Of a DNA stretch of 64,000 nucleotides, positions 7,258-63,679 are shown in pieces. This DNA comes from Chloroflexota bacterium (GTDB lineage: Bacteria > Chloroflexota > Anaerolineae > JAAEKA01). The first letter of the stretch is position 1; every line of letters starts with the position of its first letter. The stretch is from assembly GCA_034717495.1 (NCBI GenBank), contig JAYELL010000101.1, positions 10,622 to 74,621 on the forward strand. The letters are read 5' to 3'. The notes beneath the pieces are model-generated. The model had not been told where the DNA came from and searched no databases. It saw only the letters and a list, made by a program, of their open reading frames with translations. A program made the translations under genes and the position numbers.

Positions 7258-7351
7258 GCTTTCTCGTGTGGATAGCACATTAACAACTGAAAAGTGACAG
7301 GAAGGAACCAGTGTTTTGGGCTTCTGACCTATATGGTCAAGTCAATCTTTT

Positions 7352-8851
<1,500 letters not shown>

Positions 8852-8992
8852 CTAGGGAGTTATGGCCTGCCGAAGTCGGGTTAAGCCGACTGTCGGGTGG
8901 CATACTCCTAGGTCAATTGCTCGGCCTTGAGTCGAGTAACTTCCAAAACACCCTTGCTGTCACTTTTTAGTTGTTAATGATGTCTTCCGAGA

Positions 8993-9067
<75 letters not shown>

Positions 9068-9337
9068 TGACTGAAGCGCCGGTAGAGCACTGGTAGAAGA
9101 TTAAAACAAAGATATGAGCTTCAATCGCCAAGACAAGGCATAGATCATCAGTTTAAGCACGCGACGATCGTCAGACGACCCGGCGTTGTGCCGGGTCGTT
9201 TTTGCGTCTTGGGGAGTTGGTTTCTGAAGTTTGGGCTCAAGGTGTTTGAGGGCAAACTTCAGCAACCAAATGCTGAGATGTAGTTGTTACCTTAACAACC
9301 GAATAGAATGCGTACGCTTCAATTTCTTCCATCTCAT

Positions 9338-12328
<2,991 letters not shown>

Positions 12329-12408
12329 ATGAGGTGGTAGAGATTGAAAGCTGCATTCTATTCGGTTGTTAGGGTAACAACTCATATTAACTCGATAAAT
12401 AAGCTCCA

Positions 12409-12523
12409 TTGGTGACTCTAGCGGAGGTGGTACACCCAGTCCCATCCCGAACCTGGCAGTTAAGACCTCCAGCGCCGATGGTAGTTGGGACGTAGGTCCC
12501 TGCAAGAGTAGGTCGTTGCCAAC
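12409..12523 (+). rRNA. rrf: 5S ribosomal RNA
   Basis: TGGTGACTCTAGCGGAGGTGGTACACCCAGTCCCATCCCGAACCTGG...GTAGGTCGTTGCCAA matches the 5S consensus. T-run immediately downstream. Confidence 0.9.
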
Positions 12524-12550
12524 GGAGCTTGTTTTTTTTCCAACAAACCT

Positions 12551-17410: not shown

Positions 17411-20400
17411 ATGTCAAATGCAAAACCCCTTTCCTTTCAGGATATCATCATGCGGTTGGAACGCTATTGGGCCGACCAGGGCTGCCTGATTTGGCAACCC
17501 CACAGCGAGAAGGTTGGCGCGGGCACCATGAACCCGGCAACCGTATTGCGTGTTCTCGGCCCCGAGCCATGGCATGTTGCCTATCTGGAGCCCAGTTGGC
17601 GGGCTGATGACGGACGCTACGGCGAAAATCCCAATCGGATGCAGATGCATACACAATACCAGGTGATCCTGAAGCCCGATCCCGGCAATCCACAGGAGCT
17701 TTACCTGGGAAGCCTCGATGCTATCGGCATCGATCGACGCAAGCACGACATTCGCTTTGTGGAAGACAATTGGGCCAGCCCCGTTCTGGGTGCCTGGGGC
17801 CTGGGTTGGGAAGTCTGGTTGGACGGCCTGGAGATAACCCAGTTTACCTATTTCCAGCAGGCAGGAGGAATGGTTCTGGAACCGGTCAGTGTCGAGTTGA
17901 CCTATGGGCTGGAACGAATCGCCATGTTTTTGCAGGGCGTGGCTGAGGTCTGGCAGATTGACTGGGATGGACAGCGAACCTACGGCGATATCTATCTGCA
18001 GCAGGAAATCGAGCACTGCACCTATAACTTCGAAGTGGCGAATGTCGAGCGTCTCAAGCAGATGTACGATCTGTATGAAGCGGAAGCACGGGACGCCCTG
18101 GCTGCCAATCTGGTCATTCCTGCCCATGATTACGTGCTTCGTTGTTCTCAAACCTTTAACCTGCTGGATTCCCGGGGAGCTGTCGGCGTCACAGAACGAG
18201 CCAGCTACTTCGCGCGCATGCGCCATCTGGCGCGAGGGGTCAGCGAACTCTACGCTCAGCAGCGTAAGCGCATGGAATATCCTTTCCTCGATGATAACAA
18301 CGAGGAGCCTTGGAGTCCCAACTATGCTGGCGCGACCGATGATGAGGCGCCAGTGGTGGATCGTGCCGATCTCCTCTTTGAAGTCGGGTGTGAGGAGCTG
18401 CCAGTCGGTGATCTGACATCGGGCATTGAGCAGCTTCGCATAGTTTCTGCCGATCTGTTGAGCGAGGCGCGGTTGGGCTACGATACACTTGAAGTAACGG
18501 GCACGCCTCGCCGGTTGGTCCTTTTCGTCAGGGGTCTCTCCGGTCGCCAGGCTGATGAAGAGCAGGTCTTCAGAGGGCCGCCGGCCGATCGAGCATTTGA
18601 TGACCGTGGTCAGCCCACGAAAGCCGCAATGGGTTTCGCTCGAAGCAAAGGGGTCTCGGTGAAGGATCTGGAAGTACGCCAGGCGGACGGTGGTTCCTAT
18701 GTCTACGCTGTGCAGCGACTGGAAGGAAAACCAGCCCAGGAGGTACTTGCGGAACTGTTGGGCAACATGGTTGCCAGTCTGCGCTTCGAGAAGTCGATGC
18801 GCTGGGATTCAGCAGGGCTCGCTTTTAGCCGTCCCATTCGTTGGTTCGTCGCCCTGTTTGGCCATCAGGTTATTCCCGTTAGCTACGCGAAGGCGGTCAG
18901 CGGACGCACCAGTCGGGGCTTGAGGCCCGAGGGATCACCACGTATCGAGGTGCCTGACGCCGCTGCATACGCTCTCCAAATGGCACAACACGGCATCGTA
19001 GTGGAGCGTCAGGCCAGGCAGGAACAGATCGTTGAACAGATTACGGCGCTGGCTGCCGGTGTGGGTGGATATGTCCCGGAAGATCAGGCATTGTTGGACG
19101 AGGTTACCGATCTGGTGGAACAACCAGCAGCCATTTTGGGACAGTTCGAGCAACAATATCTCGATTTACCTGTCGACGTGTTGACCACGGTTATGAAAAA
19201 ACATCAGCGCTACTTCCCGGTGATGAAGGACGGCAAGATGTTGCCCTATTTCATTACCGTGGCCAATGGACAACCTCTTGATCCGGCCATTGTGCGTGCA
19301 GGCAACGAGAATGTGATCCGTGCCCGCTATGCCGATGCAGCCTTTTTTGTCGAACAGGATCGCAAGCAACCGTTGGAAGCCTTTTCTGCCAGGCTCGACA
19401 CGCTGACCTTCCAGGAGAACCTGGGTTCCATGTTGGACAAGGTTCAGCGGGTAGGGCGTCTGGTGCCCTGGCTTTCGCAACAGCTGGAACTATCTGAAGC
19501 GGACAGGGTAACCGCGGCCCGGGCAGCTTCTCTCTGCAAGAATGATCTGGCAACATCCATGGTGATCGAGATGACCTCCTTGCAGGGAATCGTGGGTCGC
19601 GAATATGCGCTCGATAGCGGCGAATCTCAGGCCGTGGCTGAGGCCATTTATGAGCATTATCTTCCTCGCTTCAGCGGCGACCGTCAGCCCCTGTCCCTGC
19701 CTGGCCTTGCGGTGGGGCTGGCCAACCGCTTGGATAGCATTGCGGGGCTTTTTGCCGTCGGTATGGAGCCAACTGGTTCCAGCGATCCCTACCAGTTGCG
19801 GCGCGAAGCTCTGGGTATCGTGCAGAATCTTGTTGGCTCCCAGCTAAGCTTTTCCGTTGCCGAGGGTCTCGACAGAGCTGCGAAACCCCTTCCCGTCGAG
19901 GCCAGTGAAGAGTCTCAGGATAGGGCACTGACCTTCGTGGTGGGTCGCCTGGAGAACTGGCTGCGGGATCAAGGCAATCCGCACGACGTAGTCCAGGCGG
20001 TGCTGGCAGAGCAGGGAGACGATCCCTATCTGTCCCGGGAAGCGGTGATTGCTCTTGCCGATGTGGCAAGCAGGCCTGAGTGGTCTGATGTGTTGACGGC
20101 GTATGCTCGCTGCAAGCGCATCGTTCGCAGCCTCGATGAAGACTATCCGTTGGCGCCGGGGCGTTACGAAGAAGAGGCGACCCGCGGGTTGCACGCAGCC
20201 TACGAGGCAGTGGCGCCTTCAATTCGAGACGCGGCGGACATAGCGACCCTTTATGGCGCGTTGACCGTTCTGGTAGATCCCATCGATAATTTCTTCGATC
20301 AGGTGCTGGTCATGGCCAAGGACGACGATCTTCGCGAGGCGCGTTTGGCTCTTGTGCAGGCGATTGCTGCCCTACCTGATGGCATTGCAGACATTTCGAA

Positions 20401-20416
20401 GATGCAGGGGTTCTAG
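17411..20416 (+). CDS. glyQS: glycine--tRNA ligase, fused alpha-beta subunits (GlyQ-GlyS)
   Basis: N-terminal ~290 aa is GlyQ (RYWADQGC...[16 protein letters not shown]...YQVILKP). The remainder is GlyS-like. Single 1001-aa ORF with no internal stop. Confidence 0.92.
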
Positions 20417-23884: not shown

Positions 23885-26800
23885 ATGCAGAATCCAGAAG
23901 AGTTTCCAGTGTCCGATCTGCCAGGGGAACAGCTTTCTGACGGATATCCTCTGCGGGATATCGAGGCTTTTTCGAGACGTCTCAATAGCTCCCTCGATTT
24001 GGACACAGTGCTGAATTTACTGGCGGATGCTCTCCGGGCGCTGCTTGGAGCCGATCGCTGTGCGATTTTTCTTTACGATTCCAGTACCGAGAGCACTGAA
24101 TGCGTACTGGCGCGCGGGCTTTCCAGGCTCTATACCGATGCCATAAGCGCCACATTTCGAGACCTTCCGGGAGGAGATCTGATTACACAGCGCTTCCAGG
24201 TTGTGGAAGATGCCCTCGCTGATCCCCGCATGATACGCGTGCGGGAAATAATCGATCAAGAGGGATTCAGGTCGATACTCCTGGTATCACTCAGGTTTCA
24301 GGATGTGGCGTTGGGAGCGTTTGCCGCTTATTGGGATGACGTTCGACAGTTTGACGAAACTGTCGTCGCGGTTGCCCAAACCCTGGCCAACCAGGCGGCA
24401 GTGGCGTTGAAAAACGCCCAATCTTATATGGCTGCCCAGGAACGATTGGAGGAACTGGAAAAGCTGCACTGCTCGGCAGTCGAAATCAGTAGAGAGCATG
24501 ATTTGCCGGCTACTTTGGCTGTCATTGTCAGCCAGGCGGCCGATGTTTTGGAGGTGCATGAGACCAGGCTGTATCTGAATGATCCGGACCGGTCGCTTCT
24601 GGAGCTGCGGGCAGGGCACAATATTGCCAGGGATGAGATTGGCCAGACTCTCGAAGTGGATGAGGATTGGGGTCAGGAGCCGCAGACATGGCAGGATCAA
24701 CGGGGATCGATGTTGCAGACGACCTTGCGTCATGGCGACCGGGTCCTGGCGGTGTTGGTCTTTGCAGATCCTTCAGGGGAACGTATCTTTGGCGAAGCCG
24801 ATTTACGAATGGCCAGCCACTTTTCATATCAGACGTCGGGCGCCCTGACCAGCGCGTTGCTATCGGAGGAGTGCAGCAAACGGGCTGATTACCTCATGGC
24901 GCTTCAGCGGGTTGGAACCGCGGTGACAGCCACCCTGGAATTCGGGGACGTGTTGCAGGCTGTGGTAGAAGAGCTTAGAAACACCTTCGAGTATTCGCTC
25001 ACCAGCATTCATCGACTGCAGGATGATACGCTGGTATTGCAGGCAGCAGCATTTCAATTCCCCCAGGAGAAGAAAGCGGCCTCCGGGTTGAACGAGGGAA
25101 TCATCGGGCGCGTGGCTCGCCTGGCCCGAGCGGAATGCGTCACCGATGTTGCTCAGGATCAGGATTATCTTGAGATTGTAGCGGATACCGTAACTGAAGC
25201 TGCGGTCCCCATTTTCCTGGAGGGACGTGTTTGGGGAGTGTTGAACGTTGAGGCTTCCGACCGGACAACGCTGGATCCGTCGGTGTTGCCGCTGCTGGAG
25301 ATGTTGGGTTACCAGATTGGCGTTGCGATTCGCAATGCCGAGTCATTTGCGGAGAGTCGGCAGCGCGTGGCTGAGTTAGAGGCGTTGAGACAGTCGAGTC
25401 TTCAGCAGGCATCTTCGCTGGATACCCGGGCCATGATCGAAACGATCGTGCAAAGCGCTATGGCTTTGGTCCGACCAAAGGTGGTTCATCTCTATCTGTA
25501 CGATGCCAGGCGGGAAGAATTTACCTTGAGTAGGGCGCTGTCGGATACCGGAGAAAGAAATCCGGCCGTTCCGAAGCCTCGCAAGGATGGCATTGTTGCA
25601 ACGACAGTAGATCTTGGTGCTCCGTTGATCATCAATGATGCTATCCAACATCCCCTGTTTGGCGAAAATCCCGATCCCTCAGTTCGCGAGTGGGGTGTCA
25701 CGGCGATTGGCGCTTTTCCACTGGTGCGTCCCAACGGCATATTGGGTGTTCTGACCATTAGCTTCACCCGACGTTTCGAATTCACCGAATCGGTCACGCA
25801 TGTGTTATCTCTTCTGGCAGATCAGGCAGCCGTAGCACTGGAGAATGCCCGGCTTTTCGAGCTGGAGGCAGAACGCCGTCAATTGGCTGATACGCTAAGG
25901 CATATGGCTGCGGCTGTTAGTTCTGCGCCTGGTTTTACTACAGCGGCCGAGACCATTCTGGACTACCTGGGAAAGGTGATTTCGTACGATACGGCAGCCA
26001 TCGTGGTTCTGGAAGGAGATCGCTTCGATCTGGGCGCATTTGCAGGTGAGTTCGCTCCGCCACCCATGGTAGTTGCGGGAATGCATCGTACTGAACTTCC
26101 CGCTTGTGACCATGTGGTCTTGACCGGGCAGCCGCTGGTGATTCAGAATACGGAGAAGAGCGAGAGGTGGCGAAAGCTTCCCGGTGGACAACTGGAGGTC
26201 CGTTCCTGGTTGGGTGTCCCGTTGCGTCACCAGGGGGAGGTTTTCGGCACCCTGAATGTGGATAGCGGGCAATACAACGCGTTCTCACAGGAAGACGTAC
26301 AGATCGTTCAATCTTTTGCCGATCAGGTGGCCACAGGCCTTATCAACGCGCGACTTCACGAGACGGTTCGGTGGCGTGCTGAAGAGGCAGAGCGTCTGCG
26401 CGACTTCAACGACAGCATTCTGCGTGGCGTGGAGGCGGGTATTCTGTTGGAGGATGACCGGGATCGCATCGAGTATGTCAATCCCCGGCTTTGCCAGATG
26501 GTTGGTTATTGCGCTGATGAGTTGCTTGGTCGCCAATCGGGAATCCTGTTGACGCCCGAAATGGATAAGTTTGTGTCTCAGCAGTCTTCGGGGCGCCCGG
26601 CAGGGATAAAGGGACGGTATGAGGCATCATTGCTTCACAAGGAGGGCCACGAGATTCCAGTCCTGGTAAATGCAACGCCCACCTTCCGGAGTGGTGTTTT
26701 TCAAGGCACCTTGACCGCCTTCACCGATATTACCCTGCGCAAGCATACGGAAGAGAACCTACTTGCTCTCAATAAAGCTGCGACTGCCGTGCGCAGGGCT

Positions 26801-28516
26801 ACCGAACCCAGGGACGTCTATGATACGATCTCGGAGGAGTTGCAGCGGCTTGGTCTTTCATCAGTGATCATGCAGGTTGACGAGAAGATGGAATTCGGCA
26901 GTCTGATCCACATGGCGCTTTCCTACGAGTTCTCTGATGAGAAGCGGCGAGGCTTCTTCCAAACCCTGGACCATCGACAGTACAGGATAAGCGGAATCGA
27001 TGCCTTGGAACGCGTCCTGATGGATGGCCAGGCGGAGTACGTCGAGGGTTTGACGGAAATCCTGCCTCGATGGCTGCGTCCTGAGGAGGTTATCGACGAC
27101 TCTCTCTGGGATTTCGTAGCGTCGTTGCGGGCAGTGATCGCGCCTCTTGTAAGCCGGGACCGGCGAATAGGAATCCTTGCGGTCATGGGAGACCATCTTC
27201 AGCAGGCGGATGTTCCTTCGGTAGAAGCGTTCGCCAACCAAATGTCGGTCGCCCTGGACAATGCGCGTCTGTTGGCGGCGGAACGGCGGGAGCGGGAGCG
27301 GGCCGAGGCGTTGGGAGAAGTTGCCCGCATCTTGAGTTCGACCCAGCACCTGGTCGATGCACTCGGGCAGGTGCTGAAACAATTGAGACGGCTCGTTGAT
27401 TTCGACAGCAGTTCTCTCCTGTTGTATGAGGAGGGTGCCTTCATTTGCGCGGCTGCGGAGGGCTTTGACAACCCGGAAGCTGTCGTGGGATCGGAGTTTG
27501 ATCCCGGCGAGATCAGCCTGTTAGCTGAGATGCTTCGCTCACCTCAGGTTGAATTGATTGCCAACACGTTGCAGGATGAACGCTGGAAGGATCTGCCGGG
27601 ATCGGAAGGCGTCACCTCCTGGATGGCGGCACCACTTACGGCTGATGGCCGGTTGGTAGGCGTATTAACAGCAAACAAGACCGAGCCCGATTTTTACGGC
27701 GAGCCCGATTTGCAGGTCCTGGCTGCTTTTGCCGACCAGATCTCGGTTGCCATCGACCGGGCGCGTCTGCACCGGGATACCCTGGCGGCGTACCATGAAT
27801 TGCGTCAGCTGGACCGGATGAAAGATGAGTTTGTGCAGAATGTCTCTCACGAACTGAGAACGCCCCTTACCTTCGTTCGGGGTTATGTGGAGTATCTGCT
27901 CGAGGGATACGCAGGGGACCTCAATCCGGAGCAGAAGGAAGCCCTGGAGATTGTCCTGGACCGCGGCAATGCCATCATCGATCTGGTCAACGGTATTATT
28001 TCCCTGAAACAGGCCGAAATGCAGGCGGTCAATCTCAGACCGATTTCCTTGCAGAAGGTTGCCTTGGCCTGCGTACAGGGAGCTCTGGTTTCCGCAGGGA
28101 AGGCTGGTGTTGAGTTGCGGCAGGCATATGACCCGCAGCTTCCTCAGGTCTACGGCGATTCGAAACAACTGGGACAGGTTTTTGACAACCTTGTCGGAAA
28201 TGCCATCAAGTTCAGCCCCGATGGCGGGGTTGTTACAGTTCGGTTAACGGCTCTGAGTGACGTTATTCATGCCCAGGTCAGCGACACGGGTATTGGTATT
28301 CCAGCGGATCGGCAGGAAAAGATATGGGATCGTTTCTACCAGGTTGATGGCGCATCCACTCGTCGTTTCGGCGGGACGGGTCTCGGTCTCGCTATCGTCA
28401 GACGAATCATCGATGACCATAACGGAAAACTCTGGGTTGAGAGCGAGGTGGAGAAAGGCAGTACTTTCCACTTCACGATTCCCACCTGTTCATCTCTGGA
28501 GTCAGGACTGGATTGA
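23885..28516 (+). CDS. multi-GAF / PAS sensor histidine kinase (1543 aa)
   Basis: A series of GAF-like units (recurring pattern ...VALENARLFE.../...ALDNARL...), a PAS segment (GILLEDDRDRIEYVNPRLCQMVGY), a HisKA H-box SHELRTPLT and a HATPase_c domain (N, G1 DTGIGI, G2 GGTGLGL). No receiver domain. Confidence 0.9.
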   Translation: MQNPEEFPVSDLPGEQLSDGYPLRDIEAFSRRLNSSLDLDTVLNLLADALRALLGADRCAIFLYDSSTESTECVLARGLSRLYTDAISATFRDLPGGDLITQRFQVVEDALADPRMIRVREIIDQEGFRSILLVSLRFQDVALGAFAAYWDDVRQFDETVVAVAQTLANQAAVALKNAQSYMAAQERLEELEKLHCSAVEISREHDLPATLAVIVSQAADVLEVHETRLYLNDPDRSLLELRAGHNIARDEIGQTLEVDEDWGQEPQTWQDQRGSMLQTTLRHGDRVLAVLVFADPSGERIFGEADLRMASHFSYQTSGALTSALLSEECSKRADYLMALQRVGTAVTATLEFGDVLQAVVEELRNTFEYSLTSIHRLQDDTLVLQAAAFQFPQEKKAASGLNEGIIGRVARLARAECVTDVAQDQDYLEIVADTVTEAAVPIFLEGRVWGVLNVEASDRTTLDPSVLPLLEMLGYQIGVAIRNAESFAESRQRVAELEALRQSSLQQASSLDTRAMIETIVQSAMALVRPKVVHLYLYDARREEFTLSRALSDTGERNPAVPKPRKDGIVATTVDLGAPLIINDAIQHPLFGENPDPSVREWGVTAIGAFPLVRPNGILGVLTISFTRRFEFTESVTHVLSLLADQAAVALENARLFELEAERRQLADTLRHMAAAVSSAPGFTTAAETILDYLGKVISYDTAAIVVLEGDRFDLGAFAGEFAPPPMVVAGMHRTELPACDHVVLTGQPLVIQNTEKSERWRKLPGGQLEVRSWLGVPLRHQGEVFGTLNVDSGQYNAFSQEDVQIVQSFADQVATGLINARLHETVRWRAEEAERLRDFNDSILRGVEAGILLEDDRDRIEYVNPRLCQMVGYCADELLGRQSGILLTPEMDKFVSQQSSGRPAGIKGRYEASLLHKEGHEIPVLVNATPTFRSGVFQGTLTAFTDITLRKHTEENLLALNKAATAVRRATEPRDVYDTISEELQRLGLSSVIMQVDEKMEFGSLIHMALSYEFSDEKRRGFFQTLDHRQYRISGIDALERVLMDGQAEYVEGLTEILPRWLRPEEVIDDSLWDFVASLRAVIAPLVSRDRRIGILAVMGDHLQQADVPSVEAFANQMSVALDNARLLAAERRERERAEALGEVARILSSTQHLVDALGQVLKQLRRLVDFDSSSLLLYEEGAFICAAAEGFDNPEAVVGSEFDPGEISLLAEMLRSPQVELIANTLQDERWKDLPGSEGVTSWMAAPLTADGRLVGVLTANKTEPDFYGEPDLQVLAAFADQISVAIDRARLHRDTLAAYHELRQLDRMKDEFVQNVSHELRTPLTFVRGYVEYLLEGYAGDLNPEQKEALEIVLDRGNAIIDLVNGIISLKQAEMQAVNLRPISLQKVALACVQGALVSAGKAGVELRQAYDPQLPQVYGDSKQLGQVFDNLVGNAIKFSPDGGVVTVRLTALSDVIHAQVSDTGIGIPADRQEKIWDRFYQVDGASTRRFGGTGLGLAIVRRIIDDHNGKLWVESEVEKGSTFHFTIPTCSSLESGLD

Positions 28517-52920: not shown

Positions 52921-53335
52921 GTAAGCAGATCAGGCAATGGCACCGGATCAACGGCTGACTTGCGCACGGCAGATATCAAGCCGTATAATGTCATCCACCG
53001 ACCGCTGTCGGAAGACCGCTGACCGCCGACCGCGGCTCGATTCTTGCTGAAAAACAACTGCCAGTTTTTTTCCTGACACATTGTACGGCAGTTTCAGGTG
53101 CAGCGCAATTTGATACACCGCCGCGCTGAATGAACCGCCGACGTGTCCCGAGCGTGTCGAGGGGCGCAGCCGAAGGGAAAACGCTGATCGATCCAAATAG
53201 AATCAGCGAGAATCTGCGCCGGAGGTGTGCGTGAATCAGCGGTGAAAAGAAAAGAGCATGACCGCAGATGACGCTGATATACGCTGATAAACGCAGATCA
53301 GGCCTCAGAAAAGATCAGAGAAGATCGGCGACCTC

Positions 53336-53365
53336 TGCGCCGAAGGTCTGCGTAATCAGCGTTCC
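53336..53365 (+). repeat. left arm of 30-bp perfect inverted repeat (tctgcgccgaaggtctgcgtaatcagcgttcc), copy B of a ~44-bp repeat element
   Basis: Exact reverse complement of 55601-55630. A diverged direct copy (copy A) lies at ~53205-53245. Confidence 0.85.
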
Positions 53366-53392
53366 TCGTGGCTTGTCCAGGTTAGGAGAGGG

Positions 53393-55642
53393 ATGCTGTT
53401 GACGATCAGACGCTCTCGTACAAATGGGTTCCGTTGGTTCATATGGATGACTATAGCCGCTTTTCTAGTCGGTATCCTGCTTGCAATTCGCGTTGAAGCG
53501 GCCCATTCGCCAGTTGATCCCACTCCTGCCGGCGGTCTGGCGTTTCCGGCGCTGGAGTGGTATACCGAATGCGCCGATTGTCCGAGAAACATGTTTCAGG
53601 TGGGGGATCGCAGCCTTCGGCTGGACTCGCAGGGCCATCCCCATATCGCGTATGTTGGCGATCACGTGTACTATGCGTATTACAATGGGACGACATGGCA
53701 TCGGGAGATAATTGCAGGTGCCCCTGGCAGCATCTATGAATGGTACCAGGCGCCGGCATCGCTGGCTTTGGACAACGCCGACAGTGCCCATATTGCCTAC
53801 TTGGACTCGACCAGCAGTGCCCTCATGTATACCAAAAAGGTGGGTGACTCATGGCAAACCCAGACTGTGAGGGTAGCGGCACCGGGGGAAAAGATCTATT
53901 ACGACACGACTCTGGAACTTGATAGCGGTGGCAAGCCCCATATTGCCTATAGCAATCATGGGATCCTGGAGTATGCGTCATGGACCGGCACGCATTGGCA
54001 GATCCAGGTCGTGGACCGAAGCGGGTGGTCGGAGATGTTCATTTCCCTGGCATTGGATCACACCGACCGGCCTCATATGAGTTACTACATGGTCAACCAC
54101 CTTGGCTCGCACATGAAATATGCCACCTGGTGGGTTGATCGTTGGTTGCACTTTACCGTTGATCGCGCCGAATACCTGGGGGAATTCAACTCCATCGCGG
54201 TGGATAGCGGGGGACTCCCTCACATCAGTTATCTCGATACCACCGGCGAACGCCTGAAACACGCCTGGTGGATCGGTGGTGGATGGCACATTGAGGTGGT
54301 GGACGAGGCAGAATGGTGGGGCGGTTTCGCCTCGGTCGCCATCGACAGCCAGGATCGACCCCATATCAGCTATGCGACCCGGCAGAATGAAGGAAGGATC
54401 GCATCCTGGGATGGCAGTGGATGGCAGATCGATACGTTCGAGCAATCGATCTGGTACTCGTCCCTGGCCCTTGATAGCAATGATGAGCCCCACATTATGT
54501 ATTTTGGCTGGCAGGATTCGCAGCTGCGTTATTCCCGGAGGATCGAAGGGCAGTGGGAACGACAATCGTTGGACAGCGTTGGCAAAGCTGGCCGGTATCC
54601 CTCCCTGGAATTGGATAATGCAAATGGCCCAAGCCTGGCTTACATCGATTTTGGGTCAGATAGCCTCAAATTCACCCAGCGCGACAACGGCCACTGGCAG
54701 GTCGAGACCGTCGCACCGATCGGCAGTGGTGGTGGGCACTCTGACCTGGCGTTGAAGCTGTCTGGTGTGCCATTCATCAGTTACTACGACAGCAGCAACG
54801 GTGACCTGATGCTGGCCCGCCGTGAAAACGACCATTGGCTATCGGAGATCGTGGATTCCGGGGGAACCGGCGGCAATGTTGGCACTTACAGTTCTCTGGC
54901 CCTTGACCTCCTCGGTGATCCCCACATCAGCTACTATGACGAAATCGGGGGTGTTTTGAGATATGCTCGTCGTGCGGCTGGTGCCTGGCAGATCGAGATC
55001 GTTGATAACAATGGCGACGCCGGTCTATACACTTCGTTGGCTTTGAACGGTGCCGGACAGCCTCATATTGCCTATTACGATCAAAGAAACGGTGACTTGA
55101 AATTAGCGGTCCAGGCCGCGGGTGTCTGGTCGATAGAGGTGGTGGATGGCCAAGGGGACGTTGGTTCCTTCAGTTCCCTGGCGCTCGACAGTTCGGGTGA
55201 GCCTCGAATCAGCTACTACGACGCTGGTGCCGGCGGTCTGAAATATGCGCGGCGCGATGGCGGCGCCTGGTATACGGAGACCGTCGATTCTGTCGGTCTC
55301 GCGGGGCAGTACACCTCGCTGGCGCTGGATGTGGAGGACCGGCCCCATATCAGCTATCACCAGGGGTCGTTTGGCGGCGCGCGATATGCCCGACTTACAG
55401 AGAGTGGCTGGCAGATTCAGGAGATTGCCAACGGTTGGCGGATGGGAGAAGGAACCTCCCTTGCTCTGGACAGTGCAGGATACCCCTGTATCGCTTTTCA
55501 TGATGGAGAGAACCAGGACTTGCTGGTGACTGCCGGGCAGCCCGTTCGTGCCTTCCTCCCGTTGGTCTCTTTTTCAGGTTCCCAACCGGGACAAGCCAGA
55601 GGAACGCTGATTACGCAGACCTTCGGCGCAGATTCACGCTGA
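53393..55642 (+). CDS. secreted/membrane-anchored tandem-repeat protein (~14 x ~47-aa repeats, propeller-like), function unknown
   Basis: N-terminal signal anchor (FRWFIWMTIAAFLVGILLAI). About 14 copies of the consensus [S]LALDsxGxPHI[SA]YyDxxxgxLkYAxrxxgxWxxExVDxxGxxGxYxS. GGAGAGGG RBS. Confidence 0.7.
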   Translation: MLLTIRRSRTNGFRWFIWMTIAAFLVGILLAIRVEAAHSPVDPTPAGGLAFPALEWYTECADCPRNMFQVGDRSLRLDSQGHPHIAYVGDHVYYAYYNGTTWHREIIAGAPGSIYEWYQAPASLALDNADSAHIAYLDSTSSALMYTKKVGDSWQTQTVRVAAPGEKIYYDTTLELDSGGKPHIAYSNHGILEYASWTGTHWQIQVVDRSGWSEMFISLALDHTDRPHMSYYMVNHLGSHMKYATWWVDRWLHFTVDRAEYLGEFNSIAVDSGGLPHISYLDTTGERLKHAWWIGGGWHIEVVDEAEWWGGFASVAIDSQDRPHISYATRQNEGRIASWDGSGWQIDTFEQSIWYSSLALDSNDEPHIMYFGWQDSQLRYSRRIEGQWERQSLDSVGKAGRYPSLELDNANGPSLAYIDFGSDSLKFTQRDNGHWQVETVAPIGSGGGHSDLALKLSGVPFISYYDSSNGDLMLARRENDHWLSEIVDSGGTGGNVGTYSSLALDLLGDPHISYYDEIGGVLRYARRAAGAWQIEIVDNNGDAGLYTSLALNGAGQPHIAYYDQRNGDLKLAVQAAGVWSIEVVDGQGDVGSFSSLALDSSGEPRISYYDAGAGGLKYARRDGGAWYTETVDSVGLAGQYTSLALDVEDRPHISYHQGSFGGARYARLTESGWQIQEIANGWRMGEGTSLALDSAGYPCIAFHDGENQDLLVTAGQPVRAFLPLVSFSGSQPGQARGTLITQTFGADSR

Positions 55643-55645
55643 TCT
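55601..55645 (+). repeat. right arm of inverted repeat / inverted copy of the 44-bp repeat element, overlapping the last 14 codons and stop of the repeat-protein gene
   Basis: The reverse complement, gatcagcgtgaatctgcgccgaaggtctgcgtaatcagcgttcc, is a chimera-like match to upstream copies A and B. Confidence 0.85.
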
Positions 55646-55726
55646 TTTTTGTGATTGATCTGCGATCATACTTCGGCTTCGCTCAGCACAAGTCTGCGTT
55701 GATCCTTCGGCTACGCTCACCGTCAC

Positions 55727-55818
55727 GCTACGTCAGCACGTCAGCACGTCAGCAGACGATGCGTGAGCTAGACGATGCGTGAGCTAGACGATGCGTGAGC
55801 TAGACGATGCGTGAGCCA
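55727..55818 (+). repeat. tandem repeats: acgtcagc x3 followed by 16-bp (gacgatgcgtgagcta) x4
   Basis: Direct reading of 55727-55818, in the convergent intergenic region between the repeat-protein gene and the helicase gene. Confidence 0.85.
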
Positions 55819-60192: not shown

Positions 60193-63100
60193 TTGTACAT
60201 GTTCAAACGCGTAGTGTTAATCCTTATCGTTCTGGGCTTGCTGCTCTCTGAATCGATGACCGGTGCAAGCCGTGTCGCTGCAAATACGTTCAAGGGTGAT
60301 CCCTCTTCAGCGCTTATCTCGAATGGCACTGATCCCCTTCGATTATACCATGATTCCAACGGTATTACCCTGGAATTGAGACTGCCCGACTATCACATTA
60401 CCGAGATCCAAAGAGAAGGCGAAACCTTCCATCAGATCGTCGTGGCCAGCGAGGATTGGGTCCAGTCAAACACGCCAGGCGCTCCGCAGATTCCAGAACG
60501 CAATCTCCTTCTGGCGGTACCTGCCACGGGCAATATCGCGCTGGAGGTGCTCGATGCACAATGGCAGGAGGTGGCGGGTACCTTTCACCTGCAATCAGCC
60601 GCACAATATGGCCTTGACGCTGCAGGTGACCAGGAAGAGCAATCTCTGAAAGCTACCTGGGACCTGGACCCGGCCATCTACAACCAGTCGAGGTGGACGC
60701 CACAAAAGAGCGCCGAGATAACACGGGAAGGCCACTGGCGTGGTTTTCGTTATGCAGGTTTGGCCCTGCGGCCCTTTCAATTCAATCCCGTTGAGGGGAA
60801 GGTGCGGGCTTTGTCGACGCTCACGGTTCGGCTTTCATTCTCGATGCCTCAGCCATTCGAGATTGACGAGCCCGCGGCGGATCCCCTGTTCGATCCGATT
60901 CTCGCAGCCACATTTGCCAACTTTGATCAAGCCTTGCAATGGCGAAGCCAGACTGTATCTCCGATTTCGGTGCCGGGAATCCATCGAGGCTCCGGCGCCG
61001 GTGGGCCATGGGTGAAAATCATGGTGGACAGCGATGGTTTGTACCGCGTCACCTATGGAGACCTCGTAGATGCGGGCATATCCAACTTGACACTCGACTC
61101 GCTGAACCCGCAGACATTTCGGCTGTATGATGATAGCCTCGAGCAGGATATCAGCGTGCTGGGGCAAGGTGATGCCAGCTTTGACCCTGTTGACGAAATC
61201 CTATTCTACGGAGGGCGCAACAGGGAAAAGCTGAGTAGCGATGACAACGTCTATTGGCTCACGTGGGACGGGCAAGCTGGCCATCGAATGCTCGAGGTCT
61301 CTGGCACCCCACAATCGGCCGCGCCAGCCAATACGCTCTTGACAACCCTGCACGTCGAGGATAACACACTCTACAAACAGCAGCGGCCCTTCATCGGCTG
61401 GCTGGAGCCCATGGTGTACGACCATTGGTATTGGCAGCACGTTGAGATAAGCAAAACTATCTCGATGGATAACCTGGCTGTAGACACCAGTTCCCCGTTG
61501 AGTGCCACCCTGTCCGTATGGATGGCAGGGGACAGGAGAGACGCGGGCAATTACATAGTCGATTTCGAGGTCAATGGCCAGGATGCGGGAAGCATGGCAT
61601 GGAGTAGCACAAAAGTGCTCACCGGCACCCATGCCATTCCGGTCGGATCACTGACCGACGGCAGCAACGATCTCTGGCTGGCTCCTCGTATTCTCGGTTT
61701 CCCGGCCTGGGAATATACCGTTTGGCTGGATTGGGTCAAACTGACCTATCCCTACGATGGGCGTTATCTGCCAGGAAGCCCTTTCGGCAATCCGACTCCT
61801 GGTACCTGGCTCTATCAACTGACGGACGTTCCGGAGTCCGCCCCATGGATTCTCAACCTTGCATCGGCAGACCAGCCACAGAAGATACTGGGAGCCCAGG
61901 CTGTTCCTGCAGACAGCGGTTTCACACTGAGTTGGCAGGTGACATCGGCGGCCGAGGATCGTTTCCTGGTGGTGCCGCCGGCGGAAATCCGTTCACCTGG
62001 CGACATCCAGGTATACAGCGATGCCGGGCTATTGAATCCTGATCAACAGGTTGATTATCTGATGATTTCCCATGGTGATTTGATTGGCTCTGCCCAACCG
62101 CTGGCGGATCAACATTCGGCATCAGGGCTTTCAGTGGCCTTGATCGATGTACAGGCTATCTACGATATCTTCAGCGATGGCTCGGTGTCTGCCGAAGCGA
62201 TTCGGGATTTTCTGGGCTATGCCTACGACAACTATCAATGGCCGCCCCCGGCCGCAGCTCTGCTGATCGGCGATGGCACTGTCGATTTTCGCGGGTATCA
62301 GTTTGCCAGCTATGGGCACGCCAATCTCATTCCGCCGTACATGGGTGGTTTCGACTTCTGGGGTGGGGCAACACCTTCGGACAATGCCTATGTCTGGTTG
62401 GAGGGGGATGACGTGCTCGGTGAGATGCTGATTAGCCGTTTGCCTGTCAATAACCCTGCGCAAGCCAACGTGGTCGTCGACAAGATCCTCAACTATCCCT
62501 CGAGTTTTCCTGCCGGTCGGGCGTTGAGCACCTTCTGGGTGGCCGACAACCCTGATAGCGAAAACCCGCTTCATGGCACACAGTTCCATCTGGCGAGCGA
62601 GGAAACCCTGGCCGAGCTTGCCCCGGAGTTCCAGGTTGATCGCGCTTACTTCTGCGATCCCGCTGTGAATACCTGCACGGGTGATTCCTGGATCTACACC
62701 GACGTTCCCACCATTCGCACGGCCATCCAGGAAGGCATTAGCGAGGGACATGCATTCCTGCATTTTTCTGGGCACGGTAGTATTGGTACCTGGGCCGTTG
62801 AAGCGATATTCCGCAAAGGCTATGTCAGCCAGTTGAGCAACGGTGACGCATTGCCGTTCATGCTGATTTCCTCCTGCACCAACGGTTACTTCGCCGATGC
62901 GCGCTGGGACGGCCTGGACGAAACGATGTTACGCACCGAGGATAAAGGCACCGTGGGTGGTTTCGCGGGCACAACCTTTGATACTTTGACTCCTCAGACA
63001 GCGGTTTCGAAATATTTCCTCCGGGCTGTGATGAACGATGGTATCACTCAACCGGGACCCGCGTCGGCTGTGGCGAGGGCCAAAACATACGTCCAATTTC

Positions 63101-63489
63101 CAGGCAATGAAGGAGAATTCACGGCAGTAGGGCACAATCTATCCGGCGATCCCTTGCTCTATTTGATCAGCCCCGAGAGCTGCATCGAGGGAGATCTGGA
63201 TTGCGATGGCGATATCGATATCGTCGACGTGCAAAGGGTAGCCGCAGTTTGGAACAGCACCGCATGGCAACCTGGATTCAATCCCCGAGCCGATCTGGTG
63301 AGGGATGGCCGGATCACTGTGGAGGATATGGCTGCCATCAGTGCTCTCTGGCAGACGACTTTCAGAAGACCGCAGACGACTTTCAGAAGACCGCAGACGA
63401 CTTTCAGAAGACCGCAGACGACTTTCAGAAGACCGCAGACGACGGACGGCAGACCGCTTCCAGAGGACGGCGACACGGTGACACGGTGA
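60193..63489 (+). CDS. secreted peptidase C25 (gingipain-like) family protein with C-terminal dockerin-like segment and TTFRRPQ x4 repeats
   Basis: Signal peptide MFKRVVLILIVLGLLLS. Catalytic-region motifs HFSGHGSIGTW and ISSCTNGYF (His/Cys dyad pattern of C25). Ca-binding-like DLDCDGDIDIVD. Four 21-bp tandem repeats encode TTFRRPQ. Confidence 0.7.
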   Translation: MYMFKRVVLILIVLGLLLSESMTGASRVAANTFKGDPSSALISNGTDPLRLYHDSNGITLELRLPDYHITEIQREGETFHQIVVASEDWVQSNTPGAPQIPERNLLLAVPATGNIALEVLDAQWQEVAGTFHLQSAAQYGLDAAGDQEEQSLKATWDLDPAIYNQSRWTPQKSAEITREGHWRGFRYAGLALRPFQFNPVEGKVRALSTLTVRLSFSMPQPFEIDEPAADPLFDPILAATFANFDQALQWRSQTVSPISVPGIHRGSGAGGPWVKIMVDSDGLYRVTYGDLVDAGISNLTLDSLNPQTFRLYDDSLEQDISVLGQGDASFDPVDEILFYGGRNREKLSSDDNVYWLTWDGQAGHRMLEVSGTPQSAAPANTLLTTLHVEDNTLYKQQRPFIGWLEPMVYDHWYWQHVEISKTISMDNLAVDTSSPLSATLSVWMAGDRRDAGNYIVDFEVNGQDAGSMAWSSTKVLTGTHAIPVGSLTDGSNDLWLAPRILGFPAWEYTVWLDWVKLTYPYDGRYLPGSPFGNPTPGTWLYQLTDVPESAPWILNLASADQPQKILGAQAVPADSGFTLSWQVTSAAEDRFLVVPPAEIRSPGDIQVYSDAGLLNPDQQVDYLMISHGDLIGSAQPLADQHSASGLSVALIDVQAIYDIFSDGSVSAEAIRDFLGYAYDNYQWPPPAAALLIGDGTVDFRGYQFASYGHANLIPPYMGGFDFWGGATPSDNAYVWLEGDDVLGEMLISRLPVNNPAQANVVVDKILNYPSSFPAGRALSTFWVADNPDSENPLHGTQFHLASEETLAELAPEFQVDRAYFCDPAVNTCTGDSWIYTDVPTIRTAIQEGISEGHAFLHFSGHGSIGTWAVEAIFRKGYVSQLSNGDALPFMLISSCTNGYFADARWDGLDETMLRTEDKGTVGGFAGTTFDTLTPQTAVSKYFLRAVMNDGITQPGPASAVARAKTYVQFPGNEGEFTAVGHNLSGDPLLYLISPESCIEGDLDCDGDIDIVDVQRVAAVWNSTAWQPGFNPRADLVRDGRITVEDMAAISALWQTTFRRPQTTFRRPQTTFRRPQTTFRRPQTTDGRPLPEDGDTVTR

Positions 63490-63607
63490 CACGGCGACAC
63501 GGGGACACGGAGACACGGCGACACGGTGACACGGCGACACGGCGACACGGCGACACGGAGACACGGAGACACGGTGACACGGCGACACGGTGACACGGTG
63601 ACACGGC
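63472..63607 (+). repeat. octanucleotide tandem array (GACACGGN) x17 that starts 15 nt before the C25 peptidase stop codon (63487-63489) and spans it
   Basis: Direct count of 17 units with period 8 and a variable 8th base. Flanked by ~47-bp direct repeats (63426-63472 and 63617-63664). Confidence 0.9.
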
Positions 63608-63679
63608 GGTCAGATTCCAGAAGACCGCAGACGACGGACGGCAGACCGCTTCCAGAGGACGGCGGTCAGAGGGAATAAG

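Follow-up and report, generated by a model that had tools for sequence, protein, structure and literature searches.

Near-symmetric beta-propellers that bind fucose or O-methyl sugars, with Trp-lined sugar sites of polar and hydrophobic character between adjacent blades, have been described in the PLL lectins (PMC6943638), and the family BNR_4 (PF15892) holds the GH145/PL42 propeller enzymes, the BNR or Asp-box motif being defined as SxDxGxTW (PMC8377490). Here we set beside these systems a gene of a Chloroflexota bacterium that lies on contig JAYELL010000101.1, in a stretch of 64,000 nucleotides (nt) whose whole length is called the window below. This gene, the propeller gene, encodes a protein made almost entirely of tandem repeats. 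We read its product as a Sec-exported, surface-associated and probably multivalent glycan-binding double propeller; taken as a whole, we consider this reading about evenly poised between right and wrong, its parts differing in strength.

Fourteen repeats of about 47 residues

The open reading frame (ORF) runs from 53393 to 55642 on the forward strand, the exact limits given in a preliminary description of the same DNA. It starts with ATG and continues uninterrupted through 749 amino acids (aa) to a stop codon; the other features are listed in Table 1. The motif [STD][LIV][AER][LIV][DNK]x4[PA]x[ILM]x[YF] occurs 14 times in the protein (starts at aa 74, 123, 173, 218, 267, 314, 357, 404, 451, 501, 548, 595, 642 and 689), so that successive copies are spaced about 47 aa apart. 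A hidden Markov model (HMM) of the repeat unit recovered 14 repeats out of 14, with a mean pairwise identity among units of 33%, and found repeat 14 to be without the W strand, the fourth of the unit. Independently of any model trained on the repeats, BLASTP was run between the N-terminal and C-terminal halves of the protein. The two halves align in register (E=2e-46, 34% identity) and also when shifted by one blade (E=2e-42) or by two blades (E=2e-35). The motif count, the unit HMM and the half-against-half alignment thus all confirm the approximately 14 repeats of about 47 aa that had been proposed before.

Within the ORF, Tandem Repeats Finder detected no DNA tandem array, and the DNA copies of the repeat units are merely 60-75% identical. 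The repetition is old and exists at the protein level only. No second copy of the propeller repeat is present in the 64-kb window.

Two seven-bladed propellers

A full-length AlphaFold2 model, built from a 59-sequence alignment, reached a mean predicted local distance difference test (pLDDT) score of 90.5 and a predicted TM-score (pTM) of 0.82. The model is all-beta, with four strands per repeat (SLALD / PHISYYD / LKYA / W..E.VD forming one blade), and disorder is confined to the signal peptide, a Pro-rich linker (aa 33-49) and the last ~25 residues. When aa 50-390 were modelled alone, the pLDDT rose to 93.2 and the pTM to 0.90. Foldseek searches with the full-length model gave generic matches: tandem double propellers did not exceed a query TM-score (TMq) of 0.48, and seven-bladed lectins covered half of the chain. 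With propeller 1 as the query, ranks 1-19 were all occupied by Photorhabdus PLL/PHL seven-bladed lectins, with a TM-score of 0.72-0.75, a root-mean-square deviation (rmsd) of 3.4-4.5 Å and 11-14% identity. GH145/PL42 enzymes came next (TMq 0.61-0.66), the GH145 structures 5mum, 5muk and 5mvh superposing in this range with E ~1e-10, and sialidases (~0.55), PL25 ulvan lyase and the fucose lectins AAL and RSL followed among the lower matches.

Blade counts in the homologs agree with the models. In a set of 122 homologs, 14 blades is the commonest number (66 proteins); in many, an inserted PKD or Ig domain separates two runs of seven, and one has 14+7. In the split homologs every run of seven opens with its own W..E.VD strand and closes without one, a hallmark of velcro closure. 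Because one half of the chain superposes on seven-bladed propellers and because homologs split 7+7, we take the protein to form two seven-bladed propellers; a single 14-bladed ring is rejected on the same two grounds. The suggestion that the repeats are propeller blades, possibly of two seven-bladed propellers, is borne out by the AlphaFold2 models, by the half-chain TM-score of ~0.75 to seven-bladed lectins and by the homolog runs of 7, 14 or 14+7, and the predicted fold is well supported.

The strand 'EWYTECADCP' that precedes repeat 1 fits the fourth-strand motif W..E.VD and bears a CxxC pair. Its residues W56, C60, C63 and P64 are invariant among close orthologs, and W..EC.DCP is found in 38 of 120 homologs, 27 of which also end in the C-terminal YLP tail described below. 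This strand is probably the velcro strand that completes a blade, and its CxxC pair may serve as a disulfide or a metal site.

Export and surface location

At the N-terminus a basic n-region is followed by the one strongly hydrophobic segment that the protein has (aa 14-34, Kyte-Doolittle 2.3) and then by a V-E-A↓A site; the signal segment is modelled as a helix (residues 12-31), and all inspected homologs start with a signal-peptide-like segment. The segment had been called a signal anchor. As an N-terminal export signal it stands, but hydropathy and the V-E-A↓A site favour a cleavable Sec signal peptide, which the N-terminus resembles more than it does a permanent anchor. Export is strongly indicated by these features, and we regard the fold and export, taken jointly, as very probable.

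The C-termini of the homologs point to the cell surface. Half of the top 120 homologs (60) end in [IVF]YLP[LIVM][IVL]x[RK] plus 0-5 residues, and in 47 of these 60 an LPLV-type motif is followed by 2-5 trailing residues. This tail, which has no transmembrane segment, comes either directly after the propellers or beyond PKD, DUF11 or Ig domains that span several hundred residues. NCBIfam names it the 'YLP-box putative sorting motif' (NF050076 sort_motif_YLP and NF053834 ultrashort_CTERM), and isolated homolog tails pass these models with 18.7, 16.9 and 13.2 bits (cutoffs of 15 or 10 bits). We found no published description of the YLP-box, and we know of no sorting enzyme for it. Other homologs carry alternative C-termini, namely PEF-CTERM (P0036, P0053, P0083 and P0099), tails of the type IX secretion system (T9SS/FlgD_ig) or dockerins, and stalks of PKD, DUF11 or Ig domains are present in many. 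Such a pairing of a single propeller body with exchangeable surface-sorting tails argues strongly for an extracellular, surface-associated module, and a surface-associated location of the family is well supported by the predicted domains. In the window protein the corresponding segment is the degenerate YLP-box 'AFLPLVSF', of which L722 and P723 are invariant among close orthologs.

A large family poorly covered by curated models

The protein itself has no match in Pfam or NCBIfam (listed to E<=10), nor among PDB sequences. Weak matches to DUF2914, HisB and KempTIM1 were judged to be noise, and designed repeat TIM barrels, the sole matches in a profile search of PDB sequences, were discarded as periodicity artefacts. 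As had been supposed, the repeat is not a WD40, PD40, Kelch, PQQ or NHL repeat, since none of these models (nor YVTN) matched at E<=10 in Pfam or NCBIfam.

Homologs are nevertheless very numerous. An indexed search returned more than 1,100, the best at 43-46% identity, and in an exhaustive search of 1.84 billion representatives the E-value limits of 1e-3, 1e-10 and 1e-30 left 23,052, 16,449 and 6,695 hits, respectively; a single-protein genome scan gave 3 distant loci. Giant members of 2,000-6,384 aa were also seen, with up to 12 separately matched stretches, that is, many propeller modules per chain.

A Pfam scan of the 59 aligned homologs was carried out at the gathering thresholds of 27.3 bits for BNR_4 and 25.1 bits for DUF7253 (PF23911). 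BNR_4 was passed by 36 of the 59 and DUF7253 by 16 (best E=1.6e-16). The window protein matched neither, BNR_4 not even at E<=10. The BNR_4 scores of the homologs are sums of sub-threshold per-blade matches with no single significant stretch, and they are confined to profile positions ~204-270, the last ~60 of 272. A regular-expression search for strict or relaxed Asp-boxes (SxDxGxTW) found none in the 749 aa. The BNR_4 matches, being the last ~60 positions used repeatedly and without an Asp-box, therefore indicate a distant blade-level resemblance within sialidase-like propellers and not membership. The preliminary description had held that a confident BNR-type match over the repeats would make the protein an ordinary family member; such a match exists in a weak form only, since many homologs pass BNR_4 but do so by summing blades. 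DUF7253 probably models one or two blades of the same repeat; we found no literature on it. A link to 'cluster 16', an uncharacterised and BNR_4-overlapping group of a fibrillar-adhesin survey, could not be confirmed from its text or supplement (PMC9210967).

The view that the gene was the best candidate for something undescribed held only in part. It belongs to a huge family that BNR_4, DUF7253 and the NCBIfam YLP-box models all touch, with a standard propeller of the lectin/sialidase type. The family is catalogued, is poorly covered by curated models and has no characterised member.

Possible function and its alternatives

All fold neighbours of propeller 1 (lectins, GH145/PL42, sialidases, PL25, AAL/RSL) recognise carbohydrate. 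The family-wide invariant residues are all Trp, Tyr and Leu of the repeat pattern, and no blade-specific polar constellation was found. Such invariants suggest a single active site less than they do a binding or structural surface that recurs from blade to blade. The sole blade-specific conservation in close orthologs concerns subfamily-specific aromatic residues in the D-to-A loops of propeller 1 (LGEfN, WwGGF and W354). Because the blades are near-symmetric, the nearest folds are lectin-like and no asymmetric polar constellation is seen, a multivalent lectin-like or adhesin-like role is the best supported. Sec export would precede removal of the signal peptide, leaving a short flexible linker ahead of two consecutive propellers. 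The protein would then remain at the cell surface or be released from it, and would act there as a multivalent lectin-like glycan binder through its repeated aromatic-rich loops and inter-blade grooves. The glycans might come from the cell itself, as part of its envelope or exopolysaccharide, or from polysaccharide in the environment. With its degenerate YLP-box under a 22-residue extension, this copy may escape sorting and be released, or it may be decaying. Glycan binding itself, suggested by the fold neighbours, stays tentative and in our estimate falls somewhat short of an even chance.

Several points weigh against this reading. The ligand is suggested by fold neighbours only, and no lectin was recovered by phmmer (E<=10) or by profile hmmsearch (E<=1) of all PDB sequences, the structural matches having 11-14% identity. 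The H/S/Y/D/W residues conserved in every blade could, like the WD40 tetrad, have a structural role alone. When scanned alone, the window tail matched neither NF050076 nor NF053834, so that a scoring YLP-box is lacking. Finally, genomic context is not conserved among seven homolog loci, and the propeller protein is missing from public protein sets in which neighbours from the same metagenome-assembled genome (MAG) are present.

A structural component of the envelope, for instance an S-layer-like, sheath or matrix scaffold in which the propellers would serve protein-protein packing and not sugar binding, would account for several traits of the family. Archaeal homologs carry PEF-CTERM anchors, which are typical of surface-layer glycoproteins, and chains of up to 6,384 aa string many propeller modules together. 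Metagenomes of the Chloroflexota type contain the family in extremely large numbers, and tandem-propeller scaffolds are the best full-length fold matches. These full-length matches are nevertheless poor (TMq <=0.48, rmsd ~10 Å), and the gene is present as a single copy in 64 kb with no assembly or export partner genes nearby. A scaffold would moreover be compatible with glycan binding. We regard a purely structural role as unlikely.

Improbable, in our view, is an enzymatic role on carbohydrates, in which the protein would be a lyase or glycosidase acting on polysaccharides (BNR_4, GH145-PL42 or PL24-25 type) with its catalytic centre on one propeller face. Besides the 36 homologs that score above the gathering threshold of BNR_4, the family of the GH145/PL42 enzymes, it can draw on the Foldseek matches to BT3686, BACINT_00347 and BACCELL_00856 (TMq 0.61-0.66) and to PL25 and FoRham1 (0.62-0.64), as well as on homolog P0019, which weakly matches the NCBIfam model of the BT3686 rhamnosidase (E=0.0035). 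Yet lectins match the fold better than enzymes do, the homolog scores come from one blade repeated with the window protein itself unmatched, and neither an Asp-box nor blade-specific conserved polar residues were found family-wide. Enzyme propellers normally have diverged, asymmetric blades, whereas those of the window protein are near-symmetric.

The gene taken singly is ordinary, and the weight lies with the family, which comprises at least 23,000 sequence clusters from bacteria and archaea. If its members were multivalent lectins or adhesins, they would represent a major unrecognised means of polysaccharide binding, of sheath or floc building or of attachment in Chloroflexota and other environmental microbes, and the family could provide a handle on the unexplained YLP-box sorting pathway of Chloroflexota. 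The window protein is a compact (~690 aa mature) and well-modelled representative that is suited to expression and glycan-array work.

The inverted repeat around the gene

The flanking inverted repeats noticed in the preliminary description are real. A perfect match of 34 nt links 53334-53367 to 55599-55632 (core TCTGCGCCGAAGGTCTGCGTAATCAGCGTTCCTC), where zero chance matches are expected; it extends to ~62 aligned nt, and the arms lie ~2.2 kb apart. The left arm takes in the first bases of the Shine-Dalgarno sequence, and the right arm encodes most of the C-terminal extension. With a third, more diverged copy upstream, the three local copies define an element of ~50-80 nt. This element was not found in the remainder of the window, in five homolog loci or in metagenome contigs. 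As a feature of the family the inverted repeat was rejected, for no homolog locus examined has gene-flanking inverted repeats. A structured RNA or strong terminator found no support either, the copies folding no better than shuffles (z -1.1 to +0.7), with no Rfam match and weak terminator matches only; a weak terminator-like hairpin with a T-run lies at 55623-55651. Most likely, a repeat specific to this genome is present here in local copies, and one copy inserted at the 3' end of the gene.

Such an insertion would raise the possibility that the window copy is decaying or non-functional, the element having destroyed the sorting tail by landing on the 3' end. 'AFLPLVSF' fails both YLP-box models that homolog tails pass, and 24 residues follow LPLV here as compared with 2-5 in most YLP-tailed homologs, the extension being encoded by the repeat element. 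In addition, the SecA of the window is 100% identical to MEA3337783.1 and its SRAP protein, encoded two genes upstream of the propeller gene, to MEA3337805.1, both on a 139,183-bp contig of a Chloroflexota MAG, and the propeller protein was found in no form in protein collections; probably the source record leaves the gene uncalled or flags it as a pseudogene. Against decay, the 749-codon frame is intact, all 14 blades are present and modelled at pLDDT >90, the Shine-Dalgarno sequence, start codon and signal peptide are intact, and long post-motif tails also occur in a few homologs. We thus give decay little chance.

A functional inverted repeat, either as an invertible 2.2-kb cassette (on/off phase variation with no recombinase in cis) or as a 5'-3' mRNA clamp occluding the ribosome-binding site until the duplex opens, is less likely than genome-specific repeat copies and indeed very improbable. 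Both arms in one transcript are predicted to form a duplex of -124.7 kcal/mol against -41 for shuffles. The gene is bracketed by inverted repeats as an inverton (Hin/Gin/Cin-type or other) would be; no recombinase, integrase or transposase turned up when the major ORFs of the 64 kb were scanned against Pfam. Were the cassette real, a Chloroflexota bacterium would be switching a lectin-like surface protein on and off.

Table 1. Positions in the window of the features of the propeller gene and of the repeat element.
Feature	Position	Strand	Remarks
Third, more diverged element copy A	53194..53246	+	Direct orientation to copy B
Left arm (element copy B)	53306..53387	+	Perfect core 53334-53367; ends within the Shine-Dalgarno sequence
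Shine-Dalgarno-like AGGAGAG	53384..53390	+	2 nt before ATG; AGGAG at 53384-53388; read from the sequence
Predicted signal peptide	53393..53500	+	aa 1-36, MLLTIRRSRTNGFR / WFIWMTIAAFLVGILLAI / RVEA↓A; putative cleavage
Flexible Pro-rich linker	53501..53551	+	aa 37-53; pLDDT <50 for residues 33-49
N-terminal strand 'EWYTECADCP'	53552..53584	+	aa 54-64; strand E54-62 in the full model
Propeller 1, repeats 1-7	53612..54601	+	aa 74-403; motif, unit HMM, stand-alone model
Propeller 2, repeats 8-14	54602..55549	+	aa 404-719; close to the family consensus; motif, unit HMM, model, BLASTP
Degenerate YLP-box 'AFLPLVSF'	55550..55573	+	aa 720-727; without basic residue
22-aa C-terminal extension SGSQPGQARGTLITQTFGADSR and stop	55574..55642	+	Missing in homologs; pLDDT 38-56
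Right arm (element copy C)	55580..55651	-	Perfect core 55599-55632; covers the last 20 codons and stop

Neighbouring genes and other observations in the window

The propeller gene stands alone among divergent and convergent housekeeping genes, which encode SelA, SRAP, an M50 protease, a MrfA-type helicase and a C25 peptidase. A conserved operon context was considered and rejected, as the seven homolog loci share no neighbour. Two of the seven adjoin polysaccharide-synthesis genes (glycosyltransferase/Wzy). At locus L004 (1-5994), upstream of homolog P0009, there are genes for Wzy_C, a methyltransferase, two family 2 glycosyltransferases (GT2) and a hexapeptide transferase; at locus L005 (9077-10213) a GT2 gene lies beside the propeller gene. 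These neighbours point, weakly, to a connection with exopolysaccharide.

The window is a segment of a bacterial chromosome, and its source is an Anaerolineae/Caldilineales-like Chloroflexota bacterium; the next-best SecA matches have 70-80% identity, some being from named Anaerolineae and Caldilineales. A complete rRNA operon (16S, tRNA-Ile(GAT), 23S, 5S) with only tRNA-Ile in its spacer occupies 7350-12524 and accounts for the strong positive GC skew at 6-12 kb. At 17411-20416 an ORF of 1001 aa combines the domains of the alpha and beta subunits of glycyl-tRNA synthetase (fused GlyQS). At 23885-28516 a sensor histidine kinase of 1543 aa with five GAF domains and PAS is followed by a protein of 460 aa whose C-terminal domain is of the OmpR DNA-binding type and in which no receiver domain was recognised.

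Tandem arrays occur at two places. Downstream of the propeller gene, in the intergenic region 55730-55816, perfect short arrays of ACGTCAGC (x3.1) and, directly after it, AGACGATGCGTGAGCT (x3.9) are present. At 63351-63608, in long arrays of intergenic type, a 21-nt unit (x4.4) is followed by the 8-nt unit ACGGCGAC (x17.8). The latter arrays start within the 3' end of the ORF of the 1098-aa C25 peptidase (60193-63489), so the C-terminus of this peptidase is encoded by repeat DNA, in parallel with the repeat-encoded tail of the propeller gene.

Comparison with known systems

The best structural match is with the Photorhabdus PLL/PHL 'bangle' lectins (PDB 8q81, 6t96, 5mxg, 5c9l and 8q83). Like each half of the window protein, they are seven-bladed, with near-identical four-stranded blades of ~47-50 aa that are rich in Trp and Tyr, and like it they are secreted, extracellular proteins, with the proviso that export is predicted in our case. 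They differ in having one propeller, which oligomerises, whereas the window protein carries two propellers in one chain, and the repeat motif is here SLALD..G.PHISYYD...LKYA...W..E.VD.

BNR_4 proteins such as BT3686, with its catalytic His48, and FoRham1 share the same seven-bladed fold, PL42 enzymes having their catalytic residues on the anterior face, and many homologs pass the threshold of the family. In contrast to a true member, what is matched is only one blade-length piece of the profile, repeatedly, and the window protein has no Asp-box or evident catalytic constellation. DUF7253, for which we know of no function, is reached by some homologs (16 of the 59), and the window protein falls short of it. 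The YLP-box proteins include half of the closest homologs, and proteins both short and multi-domain share this tail, of which the AFLPLVSF of the window is a non-scoring version.

Tandem double propellers, namely the Aip1/UTP-type WD40 pairs, DDB1 and the periplasmic sensor BT4663, also have two seven-bladed propellers per chain and were the top full-length Foldseek matches. They are built from unrelated repeat families, and no WD40 model of Pfam matched here. Because TMq stays at or below 0.48 with an rmsd of ~10 Å or more, the geometry between the two propellers differs from that of Aip1/UTP, DDB1 and BT4663.

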